Shown one piece after another: positions 30,555-45,955 of a stretch of 64,000 nt of DNA. The stretch comes from Candidatus Melainabacteria bacterium (lineage in GTDB: Bacteria > Cyanobacteriota > Vampirovibrionia > Vampirovibrionales > Vampirovibrionaceae): positions 661,687 through 725,686 of the forward strand of contig JBFWUP010000001.1 in the NCBI GenBank assembly GCA_050247195.1. The letters run 5' to 3'. Position numbers and translations under genes: made by a program. Within the stretch, counting starts at the first letter, position 1, and every line of letters starts with the position of its first letter. Under the pieces are notes generated by a model. It saw only the letters and a program-made list of their open reading frames with translations, was not told where the DNA came from and searched no databases.

Positions 30555-32870
30555 TCAGGCGACCTTTCCTGCAAACGGATTGGCAGTCAGGCTGGCGCGT
30601 ACTGCATCCAGTGCCTCTTTGACATCCAGGGCCACCTGACCGTCGGCGGTCGGATCACCGGTGCTGATCAGAATTTCCTTGATCTTCTGGAAGGGGAGTG
30701 CCGGGTTCAGCTCTTTCATCATGGCAACCACACCACTGAGCGCCGGGGCGGCAAATGATGTGCCGGCAATGGCGCCATTGCCGTTCAGGGCATCCTGCGG
30801 ATCTACGGTGATGGCGTAACCGCTGGTGGCAATATCGCCTTTGGCGGAGTAAACAGCCGTAGTGTCGTCAGTGGCATCCTGTGTCCCTCTGGGATTCAGG
30901 GCCCCGACAGTAATGACGTTCTCGCTGCGGCCCAGGAAATTTCTGTCCTGACCATCCACGGCGCCGAATGCTTTGGCGATTTCCGCGCCATTGCCTGCTG
31001 AAACGACAACCACTGTGCCGTTATCAGCCACGGATTTGGCGGCGGCATCAAAATCCTTCAGGCCTGTGGTCACCATACCGTCAGCAGTCACCTGCAACAC
31101 ACGGTTCAGTTTCAGGTCGCCATCTCCGTGGAGTTCGCCGATCAGATCGGGGCGACCTTCAATACCGACAAAGGTGCCGCCGAGGCTTTCCAGAATCGGC
31201 GCATTTTCACGCAGGAAGGCATCCTTGGCGGCCATCTGGGCTTCATTGATCCACATGGTTTCCTGAGCCGCCGGCAGGCTGTCAGTCATATCCTCACCGT
31301 TGAGAATGCGGCGGTCCCCTTTGAGGACCACCAGGTCATCAAAATTCAGGGGCTCTGCGGCATCCTGCATTCTGGCCGCATCGGAGGCGAAAGCACCGTC
31401 CACAAACTCGCGTATCCTGGCGCGTTTTTCATCGGCAGTCAGTTCCGCCGTGGCATCGCCAAACACCTGTTCGCGCATGCTGGCGCGTAAGTTGTTTACT
31501 TTGGTGATCCGCGCGGTTTCCGCATCCAGGGTCGCTTTCAGGTCATCGGCGTTGGGAATCGTGATCTGATCGCCCAGACTCTCGGTGATGGTTTTCAGCA
31601 TATCGCCGATTTCCGGTGGCAGTTCGGTGCCGTCCGGAAGATTGAGTTCGCTCACGTCGCCATTTTTAATGGCATTCAGCACCTTCCCGATCTCCTCGGG
31701 TGTTGCCTGGGATCCTTCAGGCAGAACCTCATCAGGTTCGGCCAGTTCGGCTTCCAGTTTCAGGTAGAATTCGGCGTTGCTGACGCCATAGGACATGTTG
31801 ATGATATCGGGATCATCAGCCGGGTCAGCCGCATCGGCGCCGGCGCCAATGGTGCGCAGGTTGTCGGCGGCAAAATGCAGGCTGTCTGCCACGCTGGCCT
31901 GCAGCTCGGCTTTCAGATCAATCGTATCCGGTAATTCATCAGCGGACAGTTTTTCAATAAAGAACAGATTGGTGGATGGGTCGGGCGGTTCCAGTTCCGG
32001 GTTGACCACCGGCATCGCCCGGGTCACGGTGGCGTCTTTCGCAATGCTGGAGACGACTTTACCGGTAGCCCCGATGTGAATCAGGCCATCTTCATTGGAA
32101 ATCGGGTCAGTTTCGTCTGACACCATTTCGTTCATCACCACCCGGACACCTTTGCCGGTGGGTGTGGATGGGTCAGCCAAGAGGTCTTTGTTGAGTGCGT
32201 CAAACGTGTTGCTGCTGGCGTAGCTTCCCTCCCCCTGTACAAGTTCACCGCCCAGCGGGTCGTTTCGGCGGCGGATGATCATCGGGACTTCATCGGCAAA
32301 CAGGTTGCCGGTTTTATCGCCGAACGTGTAATTTCCGTTGCCGTCCACACGGCCGATGGTGCTGGGCTTGCCGTCGGGCGAGGTCATAAAATCCTGGCTG
32401 ATTAGATAGCCATCCTGATCGCCGTCATTGTCTTCATCCGTGCTTTCAGTATTTTTACTGCTCAGCGTGTTCTGTATGGACACGCCCTGGCCGTCAATAA
32501 TGGCAAAACCTTCCAGGCCGGGGGGGCCAAGCAGGGCTTCCAGAATTTTGTCGGTGCTTGATTTGGGCTTCTCTTCGGCCGGATCGGCAGGTTGCTCTGC
32601 CGGCGTTTCAGCTGCCGGATCCGCAGGCGCTTCTGCAGGCGCGTCAGCAGCCGCCGCCTCATCCGGGACGGGTTCACCGGTATCGGCGGCAGTGGATACG
32701 TTGTCTCCGTTCAGCCCCAATGGGTCGTCAATGGACACACTGTCAGACGGGGTGGGTTCCGGCGCGGGCGGCGGAGTCGGTGTGGTCTCGGCCGGGGTCG
32801 TTTCGGCCAGCGTGCTGAAAGGTTTCTCAACCGCTGTCGTACTCAGGGATCCGGCTAAACCAACGCTCAT
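30555..32870 (-). CDS. S8 (subtilase)-family protease with acidic Pro/Ala-rich N-terminus and a large internal insertion
   Basis: GKGVRV, DIINMSYG, VVVSAGNG, ITVGA and GTSFAAP motifs; no Sec signal peptide. Confidence 0.8.
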   Translation of the reverse strand: MSVGLAGSLSTTAVEKPFSTLAETTPAETTPTPPPAPEPTPSDSVSIDDPLGLNGDNVSTAADTGEPVPDEAAAADAPAEAPADPAAETPAEQPADPAEEKPKSSTDKILEALLGPPGLEGFAIIDGQGVSIQNTLSSKNTESTDEDNDGDQDGYLISQDFMTSPDGKPSTIGRVDGNGNYTFGDKTGNLFADEVPMIIRRRNDPLGGELVQGEGSYASSNTFDALNKDLLADPSTPTGKGVRVVMNEMVSDETDPISNEDGLIHIGATGKVVSSIAKDATVTRAMPVVNPELEPPDPSTNLFFIEKLSADELPDTIDLKAELQASVADSLHFAADNLRTIGAGADAADPADDPDIINMSYGVSNAEFYLKLEAELAEPDEVLPEGSQATPEEIGKVLNAIKNGDVSELNLPDGTELPPEIGDMLKTITESLGDQITIPNADDLKATLDAETARITKVNNLRASMREQVFGDATAELTADEKRARIREFVDGAFASDAARMQDAAEPLNFDDLVVLKGDRRILNGEDMTDSLPAAQETMWINEAQMAAKDAFLRENAPILESLGGTFVGIEGRPDLIGELHGDGDLKLNRVLQVTADGMVTTGLKDFDAAAKSVADNGTVVVVSAGNGAEIAKAFGAVDGQDRNFLGRSENVITVGALNPRGTQDATDDTTAVYSAKGDIATSGYAITVDPQDALNGNGAIAGTSFAAPALSGVVAMMKELNPALPFQKIKEILISTGDPTADGQVALDVKEALDAVRASLTANPFAGKVA

Positions 32871-33127: not shown

Positions 33128-33784
33128 TCAGCGGTTGTGGCCGATTTTACCCTGGGCGACGTTATTGCGCGTGAGCGCCATGTTGACCAGGTTGACCATG
33201 ATGCCCAGTGTGGCGACGGTGGCCACCATGCCGGCCAGCATGTTCAGCTGCCGGTATTTCATGGCGCCCTCAATCCGGCGCACCAGATCCTCGGCTTCCG
33301 GGGTATGGAGGCCAGTGTTTTTAATCTGCCGCAGCCGGTCGGTCAGCTGCTCCTTGGTGGTGGTGGAATAGCGTGCTGCCGGGTTAATCCGCCAGGAAAG
33401 GCGTCTGAGGGAGGCCATCCTCCCTGTTCCCTGCGGCATGGGTTTTTCGTGGCGCAACAGCTCGCGGTAGCGGGCCGGGGTGGCCAGCCCGATGAACAGG
33501 CGCGAAAGAATGGGGATGGTGAACAGATAGAAGAAATAGCCCAGGCCGTCGCGCAGAATGTGCTCTCTGGCCTCGTTATAGCTGCGGATGGCGCCTGCGG
33601 CGATCCGCGAGAAAATCATACCGGCATAGACCACGCCCACCTGTTTGGCGGTAATGTTGCCGCCGTGGGTGAACGCGTCAAAATCAAACCGGGAGAGAAC
33701 CCGCCCGGGGCGCAGGGTTTCCGCCATGGATTCAAAGGGCTGGCTGCTCAGACCAAAGGTGGGTGACTGGACGGGACGAATCAT
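33128..33784 (-). CDS. Hypothetical membrane protein, paralog 1 of four-gene cluster
   Basis: N-terminal SPTFG; SR-x6-R...EHILRD followed by TM; C-terminal TM; overlaps upstream gene by 4 nt. Confidence 0.75.
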   Translation of the reverse strand: MIRPVQSPTFGLSSQPFESMAETLRPGRVLSRFDFDAFTHGGNITAKQVGVVYAGMIFSRIAAGAIRSYNEAREHILRDGLGYFFYLFTIPILSRLFIGLATPARYRELLRHEKPMPQGTGRMASLRRLSWRINPAARYSTTTKEQLTDRLRQIKNTGLHTPEAEDLVRRIEGAMKYRQLNMLAGMVATVATLGIMVNLVNMALTRNNVAQGKIGHNR

Positions 33785-35085
33785 GATGCGGGCACTCCTT
33801 CCGGCTGACGGGCAGAGGCCTTTTTCAGATCAAACAGCTGAAAGGCGGTGGGTTTGTGGAATGAGGGATCCAGTGGGCGGGTTTCCGTCGGTTTGGCGCG
33901 GATAATGGGCAGGCTGCTTTTACCTTTGGTCAGCGTCGGCTGGGCGCCCACCATGTCGCCGGGAAAGAAGACTTTGCCGCCGTTCTCGTGTTTGGTAATC
34001 AGGATATTCACAAAGGCCACACTCATGGCGGCAATGCTGGTAACCGCCAGGGCCACCTTGGTTTGCCAGGTTTTGGCCACCATGGCGTGTATCAGGGAGC
34101 CATCGCCGACGCGGGGGATGAACTTACGCACAAAACCACCGGCGGACCGCAGAAACAGCCGGTCGTGAACCAGCCGGCCGGCCGCCTCGCTCAGGGGTTC
34201 GGTGGCGGACAGCCCGGTAAAGGCCCGGCTGAGATGCACATCATCAAAACGGAACGCTTCGCTGAGCAGGTGGGCGAGCGAGGCTTCTTCGCGGTGCAGC
34301 AGGCCGGCCCCGGCCCGGGTGGGCTGGTAGGTCATATTGACCGAGCTGCTGAGCCCGTGCTCCACGGCCACGGCATGGGCTTTGTGGGTCAGCGCCTTGT
34401 CTGTTTTCTGGCCTTCGCTCAGGTGAGCGAACAGGAAGCGCCGCAGGCCTTTCAACTCCTGGCCGAGTTTGCTGGCTTCTTCGCCGGTGGCGCCGGCCAT
34501 CAGCTGGTCCACCAGTTGGCTGACGCCGGTTCCGTCGAGCCGGGCATCGGTCTGAAACCGTTTGGCGGCTTCAGGCAGCAGGCGGTTAATGGTCTGTGTG
34601 TTCTGAGGATCGGCCGCCTGCAGGCTGGCGGCAAAGCGGGTATAAAAGTTGCGCCGGATGTCTTGCGGGCTGCCGCCATCCTTCAGCGCATCCTCAAACA
34701 TATTGGCCAGCACATGCATGCTGTTGGCGTTAATCCAGCGCGACAGGTCCAGACCATAGGGATTGACCAGGCGGCTGTTGCGGATCATGCGCGTTGCCAG
34801 CCAGCTGGTGTGGGCCAGCATGAAGGACAACGAGTAAAAACCGCTGAACTCGCGGATGGCCACTTCCTGCCCGTCGGCCTTACCGCGCATCAGGAAAGCC
34901 AGCAGGGTCCGCGGGCCCACCATGCCCATCAGATCGGCAGCCACCAGCTGCGCGTACTGGTTTCCGTCCAGCACACTCAGGGCTTTGGGCAGCAGGCCAG
35001 CGCCCGCCCCGGCAAATTGGGGCGATGGGTTCAAACGGGTTTTCTCCCCGCCAACGGACATTGATACTGGTAACAATGGACTCAC
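33781..35085 (-). CDS. Hypothetical membrane protein, paralog 2 (start uncertain: 35148, 35085 or 35061)
   Basis: SPQFAG near N-terminus; PR-x7-R...EVAIRE followed by TM; C-terminal TM. Confidence 0.75.
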   Translation of the reverse strand: MSPLLPVSMSVGGEKTRLNPSPQFAGAGAGLLPKALSVLDGNQYAQLVAADLMGMVGPRTLLAFLMRGKADGQEVAIREFSGFYSLSFMLAHTSWLATRMIRNSRLVNPYGLDLSRWINANSMHVLANMFEDALKDGGSPQDIRRNFYTRFAASLQAADPQNTQTINRLLPEAAKRFQTDARLDGTGVSQLVDQLMAGATGEEASKLGQELKGLRRFLFAHLSEGQKTDKALTHKAHAVAVEHGLSSSVNMTYQPTRAGAGLLHREEASLAHLLSEAFRFDDVHLSRAFTGLSATEPLSEAAGRLVHDRLFLRSAGGFVRKFIPRVGDGSLIHAMVAKTWQTKVALAVTSIAAMSVAFVNILITKHENGGKVFFPGDMVGAQPTLTKGKSSLPIIRAKPTETRPLDPSFHKPTAFQLFDLKKASARQPEGVPAS

Positions 35086-35352
35086 CGGTCTGCAAAGCTC
35101 ACAGGGTGCAGAAGCGTTGGGAATACAGGAATACTGCGATTGTGACAAGAAGGTATTACAACAAATAAACTCCCCCCATGGAAGAAGTTGCGGGTCTGCG
35201 GGCGGGTTTGTTACAAAGGCGGGATGTCCAGAGTATTGACGCCAGTGACTTCACAAAATGAAACAATGTATCACAATTTAATCTTTTACAGCGTAATACT
35301 ATTGAGCGCATCTGTGCCTGTACTGCTTTACCAACCCAGACCCGCCTCCGGT

Positions 35353-36522
35353 ATGACCGTTCACGCCTTATCCCAGATTACCCGCGCCCCGGCACCATTG
35401 CCGCCGGGGCGTTTAAATGCGCCGCCGCCCGCCCAGGCCAGCAGAACGCCGGCTCCGGTGACGTTCGGCTTGTCCGGCCAGCAGGTCACCAATACGTTGA
35501 TTCCTGTGTTTCAGAAAATCAATGAGCAGTATGTCTGGGGCTTTCTCGCTGTGGATGCCCTGGCTTTCTGGATGATGCGGACCGTGGGCGGCCTGATTCG
35601 CGGTCGTGAGAAATATGATGCCCGCCAGGACCCCACCAATCAGAATCTGTCGCCTTTTCAGCTGATGCGAAAATCGCTCCAAAAAAATGCCACTGGTCTC
35701 AACTGGGGTTTTGCCGGTGAGGAGATGATCCGCGAATCCCTGACGGCGCCCCTAAGCTTTTGTATTCCCGCTTCCGTGATGGGTGTGGCCGCCGGTCGTT
35801 CCTTTAAATCAGCAGTGGGTCTGGGGTATCACCCCATGACGAATCTGAAGAATACCTGGGTGCATCAGCTCAGGCAGCGCAGCACACCGCTGAGCGAGGA
35901 GGGAATGCGCGATCATCTGAAACAGTTTGTGGAAGAACTCCTGACCCGGGGCGAACCCGATTTACTGTCGCTGAAAACCTCGTCCGGAAAACCGTTCTCC
36001 AGGGTGGTGAAGCAGTGGGCAGACGACTGGTCGGCGCTGGTGGCCGAGCACCTGAATGACGCGGCGCTTGGGCTGAAATCCGATCGCGAGGCGCGTAAAA
36101 TTCTGGATGCCAGGCTGGAAACTCTGAATGGACGCCTGCAAACCGTACTGATTGAAGAGTTCAACCGGGTGCATCACCTGGGTGACAGGCTTTACCGGCC
36201 GGAATACCTGAATGTGGGCGTGGTGGAAAACGGTCAGTGGACGCGTCTGGAACAGCCTATTCAGCAGACCCTGGATCAGCTGATCCGTTTTAAAGATTTT
36301 ATGGCGGCAGCTCTGCCGCAGCAACAACGCAACCCGGGTATTCCGCTGGCGGAACTGGTTGAGAAAAGTTACCGCAAACTCGTGGGTCTCAAGTTTGGCT
36401 TTGGCCTGCTGGCGGCCAGTACCGTCCTGATGATGCTCAGTGTGGTGCCGAAGATCTCTCAGCACAGCAAACGTTACCCGGCCAATCGTCTCTACTATAA
36501 CCAGGGTGGGCAGCCGGCATGA
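35353..36522 (+). CDS. Hypothetical membrane protein, paralog 3 (probable start ATG 35353)
   Basis: Pro-rich N-terminus ending PVTFG; MR-x6-R...EEMIRE followed by hydrophobic segment; C-terminal TM. Confidence 0.75.
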   Translation: MTVHALSQITRAPAPLPPGRLNAPPPAQASRTPAPVTFGLSGQQVTNTLIPVFQKINEQYVWGFLAVDALAFWMMRTVGGLIRGREKYDARQDPTNQNLSPFQLMRKSLQKNATGLNWGFAGEEMIRESLTAPLSFCIPASVMGVAAGRSFKSAVGLGYHPMTNLKNTWVHQLRQRSTPLSEEGMRDHLKQFVEELLTRGEPDLLSLKTSSGKPFSRVVKQWADDWSALVAEHLNDAALGLKSDREARKILDARLETLNGRLQTVLIEEFNRVHHLGDRLYRPEYLNVGVVENGQWTRLEQPIQQTLDQLIRFKDFMAAALPQQQRNPGIPLAELVEKSYRKLVGLKFGFGLLAASTVLMMLSVVPKISQHSKRYPANRLYYNQGGQPA

Positions 36523-37754
36523 GCCTTCCTCTGACAGGTCAGCCGGTTCCCGGATACAACGCCGCTTCGGAAAGCCTCTTCCGCATGGCGCGGTGGTCTT
36601 ATGACACCATGCCGAAGAAACTGGACGCCTGGAAGCAGGCCACGCACAGCGCTGCGGATGCCAGTCAGGCCACCCGCATTGCCAATCGCCTGAAACGCGG
36701 GCCGTTGTGGTTGCTCGACAAAATGGTGCGGATCGATTATTCGGAATACGTGAAGCTGGGGAAGCTGAAATTTGCGCAACTGCCGCTGGGCTTTGTGATG
36801 ACGACCTTCTTCCTGGGCACCATGGTGCCCCGGTCTTACCAGGCCATTAAGCGATCCAAGGATCACGATTTCTCCGAAGTGGGCGATATTGTGCGCCGGG
36901 ATCTGGTGGCGGTGACCTGCCTGATTTTCCTGCTGGACATTGTGAAAAAGTACGTTAATAAACTCAAACAGCCGGCCGATGGCATCCGTAACCTTTTTCA
37001 TCCCTTGCAGGGCGAGGAGCAGGTGCTGACTTACAGCCAGCGCGCCCGGGTGTTTCGCATGGACAGCCCCGAGGCCATCTACGAGATGGCCCGCCAGGGC
37101 AACACGGGCGGGATGTCGCGGGCTGTGGACAAGGCTCTGAAATCCTGGCGCAAGCAGATTGGCGATCAGTTCCCAGAAGTCCAGGGGCATCTGGATGCCG
37201 TGGAACAGCAGCTGAAGAACCTGGTGGGCGCTGTCAAGACCGGCGCTGCCGGTGACAGCGATACGGCCGCACGCAAGGCAGCCGAAGCCCTGTTCGAGCA
37301 CATCCGCGTTCTGGATACATTCCGTACGGCGCAGATGGACAATACGGTCTTTGGTCGCAAGGCGGTTGATAAACTCTCCCGCATGCTGCCGGAACTGGGC
37401 AACGTGGTGGTGAACTACGCCAAGTCCCGCAAGCTGCCGGGTGATATTTTTGGTTATCTGTTTACCGTGGGGTTTGTGGGTTTTCTGCCGGTCTGGTTTA
37501 ACAACTACTGGAACCGTCGCAAGTTTGAGCGGAAGGCGTCCGAAGGGGTTTTTCCCATCCAGCCGCCGGCAAACACCCAGCCCCCCAAAGCACCGGTCCC
37601 GTCGGCGCCGTCAGTTACTGGCGGATTGAGCCCGGTGGGTCTGCCGGGCCTGCAACCGCCTCAGTCGCCTCCTGTGGAGCAGAATGCGCGTCAGGTGTAT
37701 GCTGCCCTCAGGCAGTCTTCCCGGCCCTATATGGCGCAGCAGCAGGTACGCTGA
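36519..37754 (+). CDS. Hypothetical membrane protein, paralog 4
   Basis: PR-x6-R...DIVRRD followed by TM; C-terminal TM and Pro/Gln-rich tail; ATGA overlap with paralog 3. Confidence 0.75.
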   Translation: MSLPLTGQPVPGYNAASESLFRMARWSYDTMPKKLDAWKQATHSAADASQATRIANRLKRGPLWLLDKMVRIDYSEYVKLGKLKFAQLPLGFVMTTFFLGTMVPRSYQAIKRSKDHDFSEVGDIVRRDLVAVTCLIFLLDIVKKYVNKLKQPADGIRNLFHPLQGEEQVLTYSQRARVFRMDSPEAIYEMARQGNTGGMSRAVDKALKSWRKQIGDQFPEVQGHLDAVEQQLKNLVGAVKTGAAGDSDTAARKAAEALFEHIRVLDTFRTAQMDNTVFGRKAVDKLSRMLPELGNVVVNYAKSRKLPGDIFGYLFTVGFVGFLPVWFNNYWNRRKFERKASEGVFPIQPPANTQPPKAPVPSAPSVTGGLSPVGLPGLQPPQSPPVEQNARQVYAALRQSSRPYMAQQQVR

Positions 37755-41835: not shown

Positions 41836-42052
41836 TTTTGACCGCAAGGGTGGCCCGGGCGCCTTCCGGCCGGGTGATGACCCGTTCGGGGCCCGGCAGC
41901 CCGGGAAGGCTCCCCTCTGGATGGTTGATGTGCATTCTCCCCCAGACAAGGTAAGCTGAAAACAGGAAATGAGGTGGCAACCCGCCGCAGGGCCGGCCCG
42001 GATCCGGCAGGGACCCTGTGCAGCGCGGCGCCTGAGACAGGATTGCGAATGG

Positions 42053-43501
42053 ATGATGATCGGACTCACCCAGCTGAAAGGTGAGGAACCGGCCGAGCGG
42101 CCGGGGCATTCCGCCGTGGCTTCCGCCGGCCAGCAGGCGCCTGTGGATGACCTGATGCGCTGGGCCGGGACTCTGACAGACTCTCTAAGCGAGGCAATCG
42201 CCGCTTTCTGGGAGCAGCCGGTGGTGGTGCGGTTGTTTTCCGTCTCCGAGCGTCAGCTGTATTACTGGCGCCCCGATGATTTTTACGTCAGTCAGCTGGC
42301 GCTGGATGAAGCGCAGTCTGACGGCGAAACCGAGAGCCAGCACAATCTGGAGCTCAGATTGTCGGACGCTTTGTGTGAACGCTTCTTTACCCAGGTTCTG
42401 GGTCAAGCCCCACCGCGGATGGGGCTGTCCGGCAAGCCCACGGCCTTCTCATTTCAGTGGTTGAGCGATGTGGAGCAGGAGGTGCTGCAGGCCTTCTCCG
42501 CCAGCGTGTTGCGCTGGTCCGCAGCAAATCTGCTGAGAAAGAGCGCCAAAGCCCGCCCCGCCCGCCGGGGCTTGAAGCAGTCCCCGCCACCGACCGTTTA
42601 CATGGTGTGGCTGGTCAGCCTTGCCGGGTCTGCCGCGCCGGCCGGCAAACTGATTCTCTCGGCCCCTCTGCCGTCACTGGCCTGGGAATCCCCGGCAGCC
42701 GGCATGCCGGAAAAACAGCCCGCAGAGCCAACGACCCGCGGCGTCTCGGAGGCGGCGATTCTGGATGCCCTGTCCACCGTAACGCTCTCCCTGGGCAGCA
42801 CTCAGGCCTCACTGAGCGATCTTCAGCAGTTGTCCGCAGGCGACTGGGTGGTTCTGGAGAACAGCCGTATTCAGCGCATGGCGCTCCTGACGCCCGACGG
42901 GCCGGCAGAATTTCCCGTGATGCTGGCGCCGGCCACCATTGAAAACTATCACGTGGATCTCCCCGTGAATGCCCCGTTTGATGAAACCCGACAGGAGGTG
43001 TCCATGTCCCCTTCCGCCACAACGGCTTCCCAGCCGCTCTGGGATACGCTGATGATTGATGTGCGGGCGGAATTCGATCCGCTGCAGCTGCCTTTGCGCC
43101 AGATCCGCGAAATGGTTCAGGGTTCAGTCGTTCAGGTTGGCGATCTGCTGAGCACGCCGGTTCATCTGCGCCTGGATGACAGCACCCTGGCCACCGGCTC
43201 GCTGGTGATTGTGGGCGATCAGTTCGGCGTGCGGATTGACCAGATTCACGCCCAGATGCATGCACCGGCCGCTCAGACAGAGACTGCTGCGGGTGCGCCG
43301 GATTCGGCCGGCCCGATTACCGGCTCGGCCGTCGGCCAGATTCCCGGTCTGCCGGAGTCCCCGATGCCGCAGCAGGAGCAGGCCCAGGCGCCACCCCAGC
43401 CGGAAGGCCAGGCCGCGCCGGCGGAGACGCCGGCCGGGGGTGAGGAGGAGTTGTTTGACGCGGAAATGGATGACGACAATTTTGATGAGGATGACTGGTA
43501 A
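42053..43501 (+). CDS. FliM/FliN (SpoA-domain) switch or sorting-platform-like protein
   Basis: Two SpoA-like segments (LG....L.DL..L..GD.V.L and G.LV.VGDQFGVRI); first gene of the fliO-P-Q-R operon; acidic tail. Confidence 0.8.
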   Translation: MMIGLTQLKGEEPAERPGHSAVASAGQQAPVDDLMRWAGTLTDSLSEAIAAFWEQPVVVRLFSVSERQLYYWRPDDFYVSQLALDEAQSDGETESQHNLELRLSDALCERFFTQVLGQAPPRMGLSGKPTAFSFQWLSDVEQEVLQAFSASVLRWSAANLLRKSAKARPARRGLKQSPPPTVYMVWLVSLAGSAAPAGKLILSAPLPSLAWESPAAGMPEKQPAEPTTRGVSEAAILDALSTVTLSLGSTQASLSDLQQLSAGDWVVLENSRIQRMALLTPDGPAEFPVMLAPATIENYHVDLPVNAPFDETRQEVSMSPSATTASQPLWDTLMIDVRAEFDPLQLPLRQIREMVQGSVVQVGDLLSTPVHLRLDDSTLATGSLVIVGDQFGVRIDQIHAQMHAPAAQTETAAGAPDSAGPITGSAVGQIPGLPESPMPQQEQAQAPPQPEGQAAPAETPAGGEEELFDAEMDDDNFDEDDW

Positions 43502-43938
43502 TGGGCATGTTGCTGACCCAGACCACCTGGCATTACCTGGCGGCGTTCACCGTGTATACGGTGGCGGCAGTGGTGGTGATGTACATTATTTACTTTGCCG
43601 TTAAGCGGGATCCAGTCCGGCTGGCCCGCCTGCAGGCCATGGCCGGGGGCTCTGCCCACGGGGCGGCTTTGGGACAGTTACCGCCCAGTGCCAGGGTCTT
43701 TCCGGAAACCCTGCTGGCGGCCCTGAAGCATGGGCTGAAACGGCTGGACCTGAAAACCGGCGCTGCGGAGCGCCAGACGCCCCAACCCAGCCTGGTGATT
43801 GAAGAAGCCCGCATGCTGGATACGCTGAATACAGTGAGCGTGCTCCGTGTGGGTGAGGCGCGCTACCTGGTGGCCAGTGGTCCGCAGGGGGTCTCCCTGC
43901 TGACGCCACTGGATGCGACGAAACCTCAGGAAGGCTAG
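43501..43938 (+). CDS. FliO-like export protein
   Basis: N-terminal TM and C-terminal ...SVLRVGEARYLVASG..GVSLL FliO pattern; lies between the FliN-like gene and fliP. Confidence 0.7.
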   Translation: MGMLLTQTTWHYLAAFTVYTVAAVVVMYIIYFAVKRDPVRLARLQAMAGGSAHGAALGQLPPSARVFPETLLAALKHGLKRLDLKTGAAERQTPQPSLVIEEARMLDTLNTVSVLRVGEARYLVASGPQGVSLLTPLDATKPQEG

Positions 43939-43940
43939 TT

Positions 43941-44585
43941 TTGGACAGTTTTCTCAAAAGCATGGATCCTGCCCTGCAGCTGATCATTCTGATGTCGGCG
44001 CTCAGTCTGCTGCCCTTCATTGTGGTCAGCATGACCAGTTTCCTGCGCTACATCATTGTCCTGTCCATCCTCAAAACCGCGCTGGGCACCCAGCAGGTGC
44101 CGCCGGCCATCGTGCTGGTGGGCATGGCGCTCATTCTCACGGGTTATACCATGTCGCCTGTACTGGGGGAGATGTACGAAGCCGCCGCCCCGGCCCTGAA
44201 CAACAAGGCGCCCATCACCGAGGTGTTTGACCGGGGCAGCCGTCCTCTGAAAAACTTTATGATGCGCCAGACGCGCCAGGCCGATCTCGCCTTTTTTGTG
44301 GAGATGTCTCGCAAGGGAAAAATGCCGGAAAGCCCCGAACAGCTGACCCTGATGGAAGTGGCCCCCGCGTATATGATCAGCGAACTGCGGACGTCCTTTG
44401 AAATCGGGTTTGTGATTTTTATTCCCTTCATTGTTCTGGATCTCGTGGTGGCCAACATTCTGCTGGCGCTGGGGATGTTTATGTTGTCGCCAACCATCAT
44501 TTCCCTGCCGTTTAAAATTCTCATTTTTGTGGCGGTGGATGGCTGGGGTCTGATCATCAACGGCCTGGTCCAGAGTTTTAACTAG
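43941..44585 (+). CDS. fliP: Flagellar/type III export gate protein FliP
   Basis: TSFLRYIIVL, ALGTQQVPP, PAYMISELRTSFEIG, LGMFMLSP and LPFKILIFVAVDGW motifs. Confidence 0.97.
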   Translation: MDSFLKSMDPALQLIILMSALSLLPFIVVSMTSFLRYIIVLSILKTALGTQQVPPAIVLVGMALILTGYTMSPVLGEMYEAAAPALNNKAPITEVFDRGSRPLKNFMMRQTRQADLAFFVEMSRKGKMPESPEQLTLMEVAPAYMISELRTSFEIGFVIFIPFIVLDLVVANILLALGMFMLSPTIISLPFKILIFVAVDGWGLIINGLVQSFN

Positions 44586-44597
44586 GAAGCGCAACGG

Positions 44598-45125
44598 ATG
44601 GAAGTCCTCCTACTCGAACATGTCGGACACGGACTGGGGCTGATGCTCACCCTGTCGCTGCCCGCTGTGCTGCTGGCGGCCACCATCGGTCTGGTGGTGG
44701 GTATTATTCAGGCGGTCACCCAGGTGCAGGAACAAACCATTTCGGCGGCGCCGAAAATTCTGCTGGTGTTTATGCTCGTTATTTTTGGCGGCGGCCTCAT
44801 GGTGAACATGCTGAGTGACTACCTGCGTGAATCGTTTCACATTGCCTTTACCACCATTCCGCAGATGGAACAGATGGTGATGCCGCCCCTGGCCGGTGAT
44901 GAAGAACGCTCGCGTATCCGATCATTCTTTAAACGCCAGGTGGGCAGCACACGGGCGGATTTTGATGAGGCCGCCCGCATGCGGGACGGATTCAAACTGT
45001 CGGATCAGGCGATGGATGCCAACGGTAAGCGGGTGATCCCGAATGGCGGACGACCGGCCGCTGGTGGCCTGGGTATTGCCGAGCAGATGCGACTCAGACA
45101 GGATCAGAACAATGCGGGACGCTGA
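44598..45125 (+). CDS. fliQ: Export gate protein FliQ with C-terminal extension
   Basis: GLVVGIIQAVTQVQEQTISAAPK motif; about 85 extra hydrophilic residues after the FliQ core. Confidence 0.93.
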   Translation: MEVLLLEHVGHGLGLMLTLSLPAVLLAATIGLVVGIIQAVTQVQEQTISAAPKILLVFMLVIFGGGLMVNMLSDYLRESFHIAFTTIPQMEQMVMPPLAGDEERSRIRSFFKRQVGSTRADFDEAARMRDGFKLSDQAMDANGKRVIPNGGRPAAGGLGIAEQMRLRQDQNNAGR

Positions 45126-45130
45126 GACGC

Positions 45131-45955
45131 ATGTCGTTTGATGCCGCACTGAACGGCCTGGCGGGTCTTCTCAGCCAGTTTGCCCCCCAGCTGGATGCCA
45201 TGCTGCTGGTTTTCGCCCGGGTGCTGGCTTTCCTGGTGACCGGTCCCGTCTTTAACCGGCGCAACATTCCCATCGTGGTCAAGGTCTCCATGGCGGTTAT
45301 GCTGACCGGTTCGCTCTGGGGCAGTGTGTCCCTGGCGCATGCATTGCCCGCAACGGATGCGTTGTACGGGGCGTTTCACAAAGGCTATGCCAGCGTTTTT
45401 TACCTGCAGCTGGCCATGAACGTGACCGTGGGCGTGGTGATTGGTTTTATCGCCAGCATGGTGCTGGAGGTGATTTATTCAGCGGGCAACCTGATGAACA
45501 ACCAGATTGGTCTGTCATCGGCCGTGTTTTTTGATCCCGCCTCGGGCCGGCAGACCATGGTGCTGGAGTCGCTGTTCTCCTACATGGCCATTGTCACGTT
45601 TATGGAGCTGGGTGGTTTGCACTGGATGGTGCTGGCGCTGCAGAAGAGCTTTGTGACCTTTCCGCTGCTGTATACCCGTCAGCCTCTGTTTGAGGTGATT
45701 GACATGAGTTACTTTGTGGGCCTCTCCGGGGATGTGTTTACCGTGGCCGTGCAGATGATGGCGCCCGTTCTGGTGGTCACCATGGCGATGGACCTCATTC
45801 TGGGGATCGTGAACCGGGCCGCCCAGCAGATGCCCGTGTTTCAGCTGAGTTTTGCCCTGAAGCCGGCCGTGGGGGTGGCGGTTCTGCTGATGACGCTGCC
45901 CATCTTCGTGCAGACGATGGTGCACTTTCTGAGCGATTACGCCGACATTTTTTAG
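45131..45955 (+). CDS. fliR: Export gate protein FliR
   Basis: FARV..F....PVF, AG.LMN.QIGLS..FDP and RAAQQMPVF.L.F..K motifs. Confidence 0.95.
   Translation: MSFDAALNGLAGLLSQFAPQLDAMLLVFARVLAFLVTGPVFNRRNIPIVVKVSMAVMLTGSLWGSVSLAHALPATDALYGAFHKGYASVFYLQLAMNVTVGVVIGFIASMVLEVIYSAGNLMNNQIGLSSAVFFDPASGRQTMVLESLFSYMAIVTFMELGGLHWMVLALQKSFVTFPLLYTRQPLFEVIDMSYFVGLSGDVFTVAVQMMAPVLVVTMAMDLILGIVNRAAQQMPVFQLSFALKPAVGVAVLLMTLPIFVQTMVHFLSDYADIF

Follow-up and report, generated by a model that had tools for sequence, protein, structure and literature searches.

The window analysed here is a stretch of 64,000 nucleotides from contig JBFWUP010000001.1 of a Candidatus Melainabacteria bacterium of the Vampirovibrionales (assembly GCA_050247195.1), and positions 33128 to 37754 within it hold four genes, here called A, B, C and D, which form two divergently transcribed operons, B-A and C-D. 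At the B/A as well as at the C/D junction the stop codon of the first gene overlaps the start of the second by 4 nucleotides (ATGA), in agreement with the original prediction, made from the sequence alone, of four proteins encoded in overlapped divergent pairs. The genes and the region between them, with the subunit types X and Y that are explained below, are as follows.

33128-33784, minus strand: gene A, short Y-type subunit and second gene of the B-A operon, open reading frame (ORF) of 218 amino acids (aa)
33781-35148, minus strand: gene B, X-type subunit, 455 aa from TTG 35148, with an alternative ATG at 35061
35062-35352, no strand assigned: divergent intergenic region B/C, 47% G + C against about 59% around it, compared with homologous spacers
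35353-36522, plus strand: gene C, X-type subunit, 389 aa from ATG 35353, with the longest ORF starting from TTG 35188
36519-37754, plus strand: gene D, long Y-type subunit, ORF of 411 aa

Because the orthologues of C have 35-60 residues ahead of the invariant F of an F-G motif, alignment with them makes ATG 35353 a more likely start of C than TTG 35188, and the stretch of the long ORF between these two codons is an AT-rich spacer. For B, a start at ATG 35061 instead of TTG 35148 is likewise possible on sequence grounds. The divergent region 35062-35352 presumably carries both outward-facing promoters. Scanning it for sigma-70 promoters and terminators yielded weak sigma-70-like matches only, which were no better than those in shuffled sequences, and a Vampirovibrionales-specific TGTTTTTAT promoter was not consistently present across the homologous divergent spacers.

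Pairwise BLASTP comparisons among A, B, C and D gave no match at all, as was to be expected from the little overall identity that had been noted before. Profiles were therefore built for each gene from 19-20 orthologues (A1 for D, A2 for A, A3 for B and A4 for C) and compared with hhalign, for which 12 controls with reversed profiles scored 15-25. A and D aligned over their full length (score 78, 96.9%, E = 1.5e-10), and matches were also found between B and C (score 70, 95.2%, E = 2.5e-8) and between B and D (score 53, 86%, E = 4.8e-6), while the A-B alignment (score 32) was in register on the common motif. The C-D and A-C scores of 28 and 20 were not significant directly, so that these proteins are linked only via the other pairs. 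In addition, an HMMER search of 1.84 billion representative proteins with the D profile brings up A-type proteins at 1e-11 to 1e-17, and the models famA, famB and famD cross-match in other genomes. Judged by these profile comparisons, A to D are members of one undescribed, lineage-restricted family with two subtypes, X (B and C) and Y (A and D), the two being joined because of the B-D profile match and the common residue pattern described below; the proposal of an ancient paralogous family is thereby borne out.

None of the four proteins matches a family in Pfam, NCBIfam, PADLOC or PHROGs, and a search of the PDB sequences with all four profiles returned helical-bundle noise only (apolipophorin, de novo bundles, bS20). 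Known housekeeping families of the inner membrane such as MotA/ExbB/TolQ gave no Pfam or NCBIfam match either, and TolQ chains appeared in Foldseek at E 1.1-1.7 with a probability of 0.07. The PADLOC and PHROGs results were noise of E 0.009 or worse, on which basis an anti-phage defence function or a phage origin is rejected. Two further searches yielded little: a related-locus search with the single D protein found no relative, and a protein search with A1 yielded two proteins only and was swamped by word-sharing candidates.

The common core of the family consists of a helix 1 ending in (P)R, followed by RG(K/R), the motif E-x2-3-R-[DE], a helix 2, a helical middle part, and a C-terminal hydrophobic helix that ends in a conserved Asn and is followed by basic residues. 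Within each family (A1-A4 and the fused proteins introduced below) no variation is seen at the R, E and R-[DE] positions, and the motifs EHILRD, EVAIRE, EEMIRE and DIVRRD as well as the [SPM]R-x6-7-R spacing, from which the original prediction had set out, are all present in the translations. In the window the cores are located at the following positions.

33479-33643, minus strand: core of A (residues 48-102), whose helix 1 closes with S-R60; a loop carrying R67, E71, E74 and R78-D79 joins it to helix 2; invariant columns in A2 are Y53, R60, E71, E74, R78, D79 and G82
34786-34956, minus strand: core of B (residues 65-121), whose helix 1 carries D72 and P79-R80; a loop carrying R88-G89, E95 and R99-E100 joins it to helix 2; invariant columns in A3 are D72, P79, R80, R88, E95, R99, E100 and G103
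35524-35799, plus strand: core of C (residues 113-204, counted in the long ORF), whose helix 1 carries D123 and R131; a loop of 50 aa carrying G139, D148, N172, E178 and R182-E183 joins it to helix 2 (invariant columns of A4)
36777-36956, plus strand: core of D (residues 87-146), whose helix 1 closes with P-R105; a loop carrying A109, R112, E120, D123 and R127-D128 joins it to helix 2 (invariant columns of A1)

A further alignment made with MAFFT from the B-A fusion of genome G014 and separate B and A rows (A5) laid B on the A half and was unusable as a model of the fusion, but it nonetheless displays the common R/E/R/G columns. As regards the other end of the proteins, a Pro/Gln-rich tail is followed in many orthologues of B and C by the terminal residues G-G-[I/Q/P]-[L/I/T]-A-COOH (the ends concerned lie at about 33781-33800 for B and about 36505-36522 for C, with orthologues in L026-L044), and the fusions of the Gastranaerophilales end in K-P-T-M-A-G-F-L. 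A partner of the PDZ type, or another one that recognises protein tails, might dock at this conserved extreme C-terminal peptide.

With respect to gene order, the arrangement A<B<>C>D was found in the loci of 20 out of 20 relatives from three families of the order, and the expectation that the genes are retained as a set was thus confirmed. The gene cdaA is situated on the A side of the cluster. Every occurrence consists of an X gene followed by a Y gene, either B then A or C then D, and the cluster is therefore an inverted (head-to-head) duplication of an ancestral X-Y operon. The two operons are not bound to each other, however: the distance between them is 90 kb in G010 and 370 kb in G001, each operon being intact; an extra B-A pair is present in G019 and G022, tandem C-D pairs in G029, and several C-D pairs together with a fused B-A in G027. 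Fusions of B and A into a single protein were also encountered in G014 (676 aa) and, in the search of the representatives, as P0143. In G001, a D-type match at C1:700097-700960 has three in-frame stop codons, yet an intact D-type ORF of 340 aa is located nearby, and the interrupted match may be a partly degraded or shortened copy.

The fusions are most numerous in the Gastranaerophilales (family f4), where the genomes have one main unit that is usually fused: 45 X-Y proteins of 559-755 aa were found there, and only in three genomes (L045, L046 and L050) is the unit split into two overlapping or abutting genes. Among the f4 proteins the X halves fit famC much more closely than famB, and the same holds for the Y halves with famD as against famA; as the f4 unit thus resembles C-D, B-A is the derived copy. 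Since the operons occur apart from each other, in extra copies and in fused form, the unit of function is the pair and not the quartet. The evidence on physical assembly likewise points to pairs, B with A and C with D. The idea that all four proteins assemble together is hence supported as far as the pairwise associations in operons and fusions are concerned, but not as a four-way association, because the pairs are found separately or in extra copies; perhaps B·A and C·D nevertheless join into a B·A·C·D tetramer.

The distribution of the family is narrow. With the D profile only 315 clusters were obtained at E ≤ 1e-3 among the 1.84 billion representatives, and in a sample of 301 genomes from the phylum all matches beyond the genome of the window fall into the same class, in family f4 with its small genomes of low G + C content, whereas 178 other genomes gave no match. 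A class-wide scan with a profile of the fusion detected the family in f1-f4 and f42, and within the class it is thus widespread without being universal. Altogether, 271 loci encode a relative. Of gut origin (human, rumen, goat, chicken and others), the f4 carriers are metagenome-assembled genomes (MAGs) that are assigned to Candidatus Gastranaerophilales, Gastranaerophilaceae or Melainabacteria, and some of them carry two fused copies. The family is therefore confined to some lineages of the Melainabacteria, the non-photosynthetic relatives of the cyanobacteria, among them gut lineages that are not known as predators. Further, more distant paralogues of 500-600 aa with a Y-like core were also seen (e.g., G139:C1:225791-226357 and 1740812-1741135; L093:1413-3080), and the superfamily is therefore larger than the main X-Y unit.

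The AlphaFold2 model of D, computed with A1, is all helical (predicted local distance difference test, pLDDT, 74.9; predicted template-modelling score, pTM, 0.60) and comprises a hairpin of helices 90-112 and 119-154, a bundle spanning residues 172-289 with a pLDDT above 90, and a long helix 293-341. When L052, a fused protein of 559 aa, was modelled with an alignment of 46 fused relatives (A6; pLDDT 73.7, pTM 0.62), the elements of the D model appeared twice, and the pTM value suggests that the two halves are in a defined arrangement. The fused model is disordered only at residues 1-46 and 320-340. Comparison of both models with the PDB by Foldseek gave no match below E 0.05 (best E 0.55 and 0.05, template-modelling score about 0.1), and no member of A6 matches Pfam; neither the four proteins nor the 46 fused relatives gave a match to translocator families in Pfam or NCBIfam.

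Of the hydrophobic segments, only the C-terminal helix is clearly transmembrane, with a Kyte-Doolittle (KD) hydropathy of 1.3-2.2, as hydrophobic as an ordinary inner-membrane anchor. Helices 1 and 2, in turn, are marginal (KD 0.8-1.5, Eisenberg <H> 0.31-0.57), with a low hydrophobic moment and conserved charges inside. The architecture proposed originally, with two hydrophobic segments, a variable helical middle and a C-terminal transmembrane segment, is thus correct in its common layout and its C-terminal anchor, whereas its first two segments are hydrophobic only to a marginal extent. The N-termini of A, B, C and D are polar and disordered and have no hydrophobic signal segment, i.e., no Sec signal.

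Three of the four proteins carry in their N-terminal part a short motif of the type P-x-F-G, in wider form [P/V/I]-x-F-[G/S/A/T]-G, here termed the Phe-box, which is conserved within a disordered arm ahead of the folded part.

33752-33766, minus strand: Phe-box of A, S-P-T-F-G, with P8 invariant (A2)
35008-35025, minus strand: Phe-box of B, S-P-Q-F-A-G, with F45 nearly invariant (A3)
35455-35469, plus strand: Phe-box of C, P-V-T-F-G, with F93 invariant (A4)

Several D orthologues carry R-F-G, and the missing box in the D protein of the window can therefore be regarded as a loss. The fused proteins have conserved both boxes (F39 and F335/G337), which reside in the two disordered segments, with a pLDDT below 50. 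The box of the Y half is thereby placed about 335 residues from the N-terminus in the 46 fused proteins, within a disordered linker, and is still invariant. The motif that had been described as an N-terminal leader in three proteins is accordingly conserved as claimed, but in view of these 46 fusions it does not act as an N-terminal leader in this family: being internal yet invariant, it behaves in X-Y like a docking or processing motif and not like a free N-terminal signal, and models that treat the box purely as an N-terminal export leader need revising. In the ORFs of the window's genome (G000), P-x-F-[GAS]-G occurs 28 times within the first 120 residues against 19 expected, a mild enrichment, and its carriers are mostly orphan-looking (e.g., C2:277337, C3:258198, C4:11550 and C7:33955). 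Several neighbours of X-Y in the Gastranaerophilales also start with S/P-F-x-G boxes, these being orphans of 145-690 aa (L045:10297-13836, L052:3586-5466, L049:12692-13783).

Taken as a whole, we consider it on balance probable that X and Y form resident heterodimeric membrane complexes, B·A and C·D, in the cytoplasmic membrane of the cell that produces them. According to this proposal the heterodimer would be obligate, and each subunit would be anchored by its strongly hydrophobic C-terminal helix together with the marginally hydrophobic helix hairpin. The invariant Arg, Glu and Arg-Asp(Glu) residues of the hairpin loop might cluster at the membrane surface, where X and Y would meet; a helical bundle would lie between hairpin and anchor, and the ends would form disordered arms. 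The P-x-F-G box in the N-terminal arm would be a short motif that a partner uses for docking or processing, not a cleavable export leader. As to its role, the complex would most likely be a structural envelope complex, or one handling small solutes or lipids, that is specific to these lineages. In favour of this reading are the hydrophobicity of the C-terminal helix with KD values of 1.8-2.2, the presence of the family in gut MAGs, and the invariance of the charged residues in all families.

Several observations weigh against such a resident complex. The hydrophobicity of helices 1 and 2 resembles that of amphitropic or exported membrane proteins, and an analysis by the positive-inside rule gives no topology, since all soluble segments have a net basic charge. 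If the number of transmembrane helices per half were odd, X and Y would be oriented oppositely in the fused proteins, an arrangement that gains no support from the identical charge patterns of the two halves, and the location of the charge cluster at the X-Y interface is something we infer from the sequence. The family is also patchy rather than a universal housekeeping component, as it remained undetected in f5 and f43-f47 in the class-wide scan even at E 0.01, although this apparent absence may partly result from divergence and from the search prefilter. Finally, none of the RNA runs searched contains the locus, which was found only in DNA metagenomes from landfill and sludge.

The genes around the cluster have to be considered in connection with the possibility of export, and the most relevant ones in the window are a subtilase gene on the A side and a second flagellar-type export operon beyond D.

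30555-32870, minus strand: subtilase, 771 aa, of which the C-terminal third alone matches Peptidase_S8
41969-45955: operon fliMN-O-P-Q-R, a second, divergent flagellar-type export gate, coding for a FliM/N-like protein (510 aa), a FliO-like protein, FliP, FliQ and FliR

The subtilase has a long acidic, Pro/Ala-rich N-terminal part without a signal peptide and is located between cdaA and A in the genome of the window only (0/20 relatives). On the D side, a gene for a tetratricopeptide repeat (TPR) protein with a transmembrane helix and two heptosyltransferase genes are found in family f1, the TPR gene being adjacent in this family only. The TPR protein has 455 aa, an N-terminal transmembrane helix and generic TPR matches, its score with LcrH_SycD being 73 bits at a cut-off of 105. 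Both flanking genes are thus present as originally described, but as their adjacency to the cluster is not conserved, the subtilase and the membrane-anchored TPR protein are rejected as members of the system. The FliQ of the operon at 41969-45955 has 175 aa owing to a C-terminal extension. At C1:363-368 kb the other fliP/fliR set adjoins flhA, of which a further copy (36% identical) resides on C8 among rod-like and FliF-like genes. Two FliR paralogues were present in 41 out of 41 sampled relatives from the Vampirovibrionales, and most families of the Melainabacteria have two FHIPEP matches. The second FliR is encoded 7-8.6 kb from D in 15 genomes of f1 but not near D in f2, f3 and f4. At least two FlhA-type matches were counted in five of the five X-Y-positive families as compared to two of the six X-Y-negative ones; being a family-level count without phylogenetic correction, this association of X-Y with a second export set is suggestive but weak.

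An alternative hypothesis, close to the original prediction of an exported pore or feeding channel in a target membrane, assumes that X and Y are exported, the N-terminal arm with the Phe-box serving as signal or chaperone site, and that they insert as a pore or translocon into the membrane of another cell, in the manner of the translocator pairs of type III secretion systems (T3SS); the nearby second flagellar-type type III apparatus could provide the route. The lack of a Sec signal, the disordered N-termini bearing the box, and the moderate hydrophobicity of helices 1 and 2, which is typical of exported membrane proteins, would all fit, as would the second fliMN-O-P-Q-R operon at 4-8 kb from D in the window and in 15 f1 genomes, the FlhA counts with their weakness noted above, and the expansion of the number of pairs in the Vampirovibrionales. 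However, neither model resembles a translocator or an alpha-pore-forming toxin, a profile match to these is missing as well, and the strongly hydrophobic C-terminal helix looks like an ordinary anchor. Moreover, fliPQR is no longer adjacent in f2, f3 and f4, so that its proximity represents synteny at the family level, the gut Gastranaerophilales carry X-Y without adjacent flagellar genes and are not known to be predators, and the Y-half box is invariant at its internal position in the fusions. The TPR neighbour, too, is large and membrane-anchored, unlike the small class II chaperones, and is not conserved beyond f1. On this evidence an exported pore is unlikely, and the corresponding claim of the original prediction was not upheld.

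Similarly improbable is that the proteins are tail-anchored scaffolds, in which helices 1 and 2 are buried in a soluble bundle and the C-terminal helix is the sole anchor, so that a basic X-Y bundle would form a coat on the cytoplasmic side of the membrane or organise it there, in a cytoskeletal or membrane-shaping role, or bind an acidic polymer. Such a scaffold would account for the Eisenberg <H> of only 0.31-0.36 of helix 1 in A, B and C with its conserved Asp and Arg inside, for the net basic charge of all soluble segments, and for the all-helical bundle models, to which weak noise matches of apolipophorin-, talin- and BAR-like type may be added. With one transmembrane helix per half, however, the X and Y bodies of the fused proteins would come to lie on opposite sides of the membrane, even though the halves are homologous and have the same charge pattern, and helix 2 has a KD of 1.3-1.5 in B and D.

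More speculatively, and with a somewhat lower probability than either of the foregoing, X-Y and the Phe-box might be two halves of one undescribed system specific to the Melainabacteria. The fused proteins might then be polyproteins that are cut at the internal box, the resulting heterodimers being delivered, possibly by the second flagellar-type export apparatus of the 41 out of 41 sampled Vampirovibrionales, to form a new helical membrane channel; or else the X-Y complex might be the receptor that reads the box. In its narrower form, namely that the X-Y complex acts as membrane receptor or channel in an undescribed sorting pathway peculiar to the Melainabacteria, reading the Phe-box and using its own boxes for self-assembly or autoregulation, this idea is very improbable: family and motif are both found in the Melainabacteria and the complex would be heteromeric and membrane-bound with an invariant charged site, but the case is purely circumstantial, carrying the tag makes X-Y look like clients and not like the machine, and X-Y was not detected in several families of the class.

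Returning to the resident membrane complex, X-Y is a new family of two subtypes; its unit is a predicted X-Y heterodimer, and in the Vampirovibrionales it has undergone an inverted duplication. No non-photosynthetic group is more closely related to the cyanobacteria than the Melainabacteria, and almost no gene specific to this lineage has been assigned a function. X-Y is a compact family without a known fold that is strongly conserved where it is present, and its clear architecture, its invariant charged site and the natural fusions, which name the binding partners, make it tractable for structural and cell-biological work. Should X-Y turn out to be tied to the second flagellar-type export, it would represent a new envelope or secretion module, whereas it would be of modest interest if it were only a lineage-specific structural membrane protein.

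Among known systems, the translocator pairs of T3SS (YopB/YopD, IpaB/IpaC, PopB/PopD) resemble X-Y in being helical proteins encoded by an adjacent gene pair, with a hydrophobic hairpin, a disordered N-terminus and no Sec signal, and also in genomic context, as a TPR gene is located nearby and a flagellar-type export-gate operon lies within 8 kb in f1. They differ in that X-Y has no match to them in sequence (Pfam, NCBIfam) or fold, and in that X and Y are paralogous to each other, which the members of the translocator pairs are not. Furthermore, X and Y have an additional strongly hydrophobic C-terminal helix, are often fused, and occur in gut lineages without linkage to a T3SS, and the TPR protein is large and anchored in the membrane.

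The ClyA-family and tripartite alpha-pore-forming toxins (AhlABC, SmhABC, Nhe, Hbl) are similar to X-Y insofar as they are encoded in operons of distant paralogues of low identity and consist of a helical bundle with a hydrophobic hairpin, and they assemble into hetero-oligomers. The best Foldseek match of this kind, however, the SmhB pore 7a0g, is noise (E 0.94, probability 0.11, template-modelling score 0.13), and none was obtained for the fused model; in addition, X-Y has neither a profile match of the HBL type nor a signal peptide as in Hbl and Nhe, and its invariant charged hairpin loop and its C-terminal anchor have no counterpart in these toxins.

A third comparison concerns UPF0016 (GDT1/TMEM165/MneA) and the small multidrug-resistance (SMR) pairs, in which adjacent homologous genes for proteins of few helices give rise to a heterodimer, fused two-repeat forms exist elsewhere, and each repeat has a charged motif. 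The X-Y subunits, with 220-500 aa, a large helical domain and disordered arms, differ from these three-helix modules of about 100 aa, and their charge bias gives no support for an antiparallel topology. X-Y has no sequence relationship to either of them, and it is the evolutionary pattern of UPF0016 and the small multidrug-resistance pairs that is like that of X-Y.

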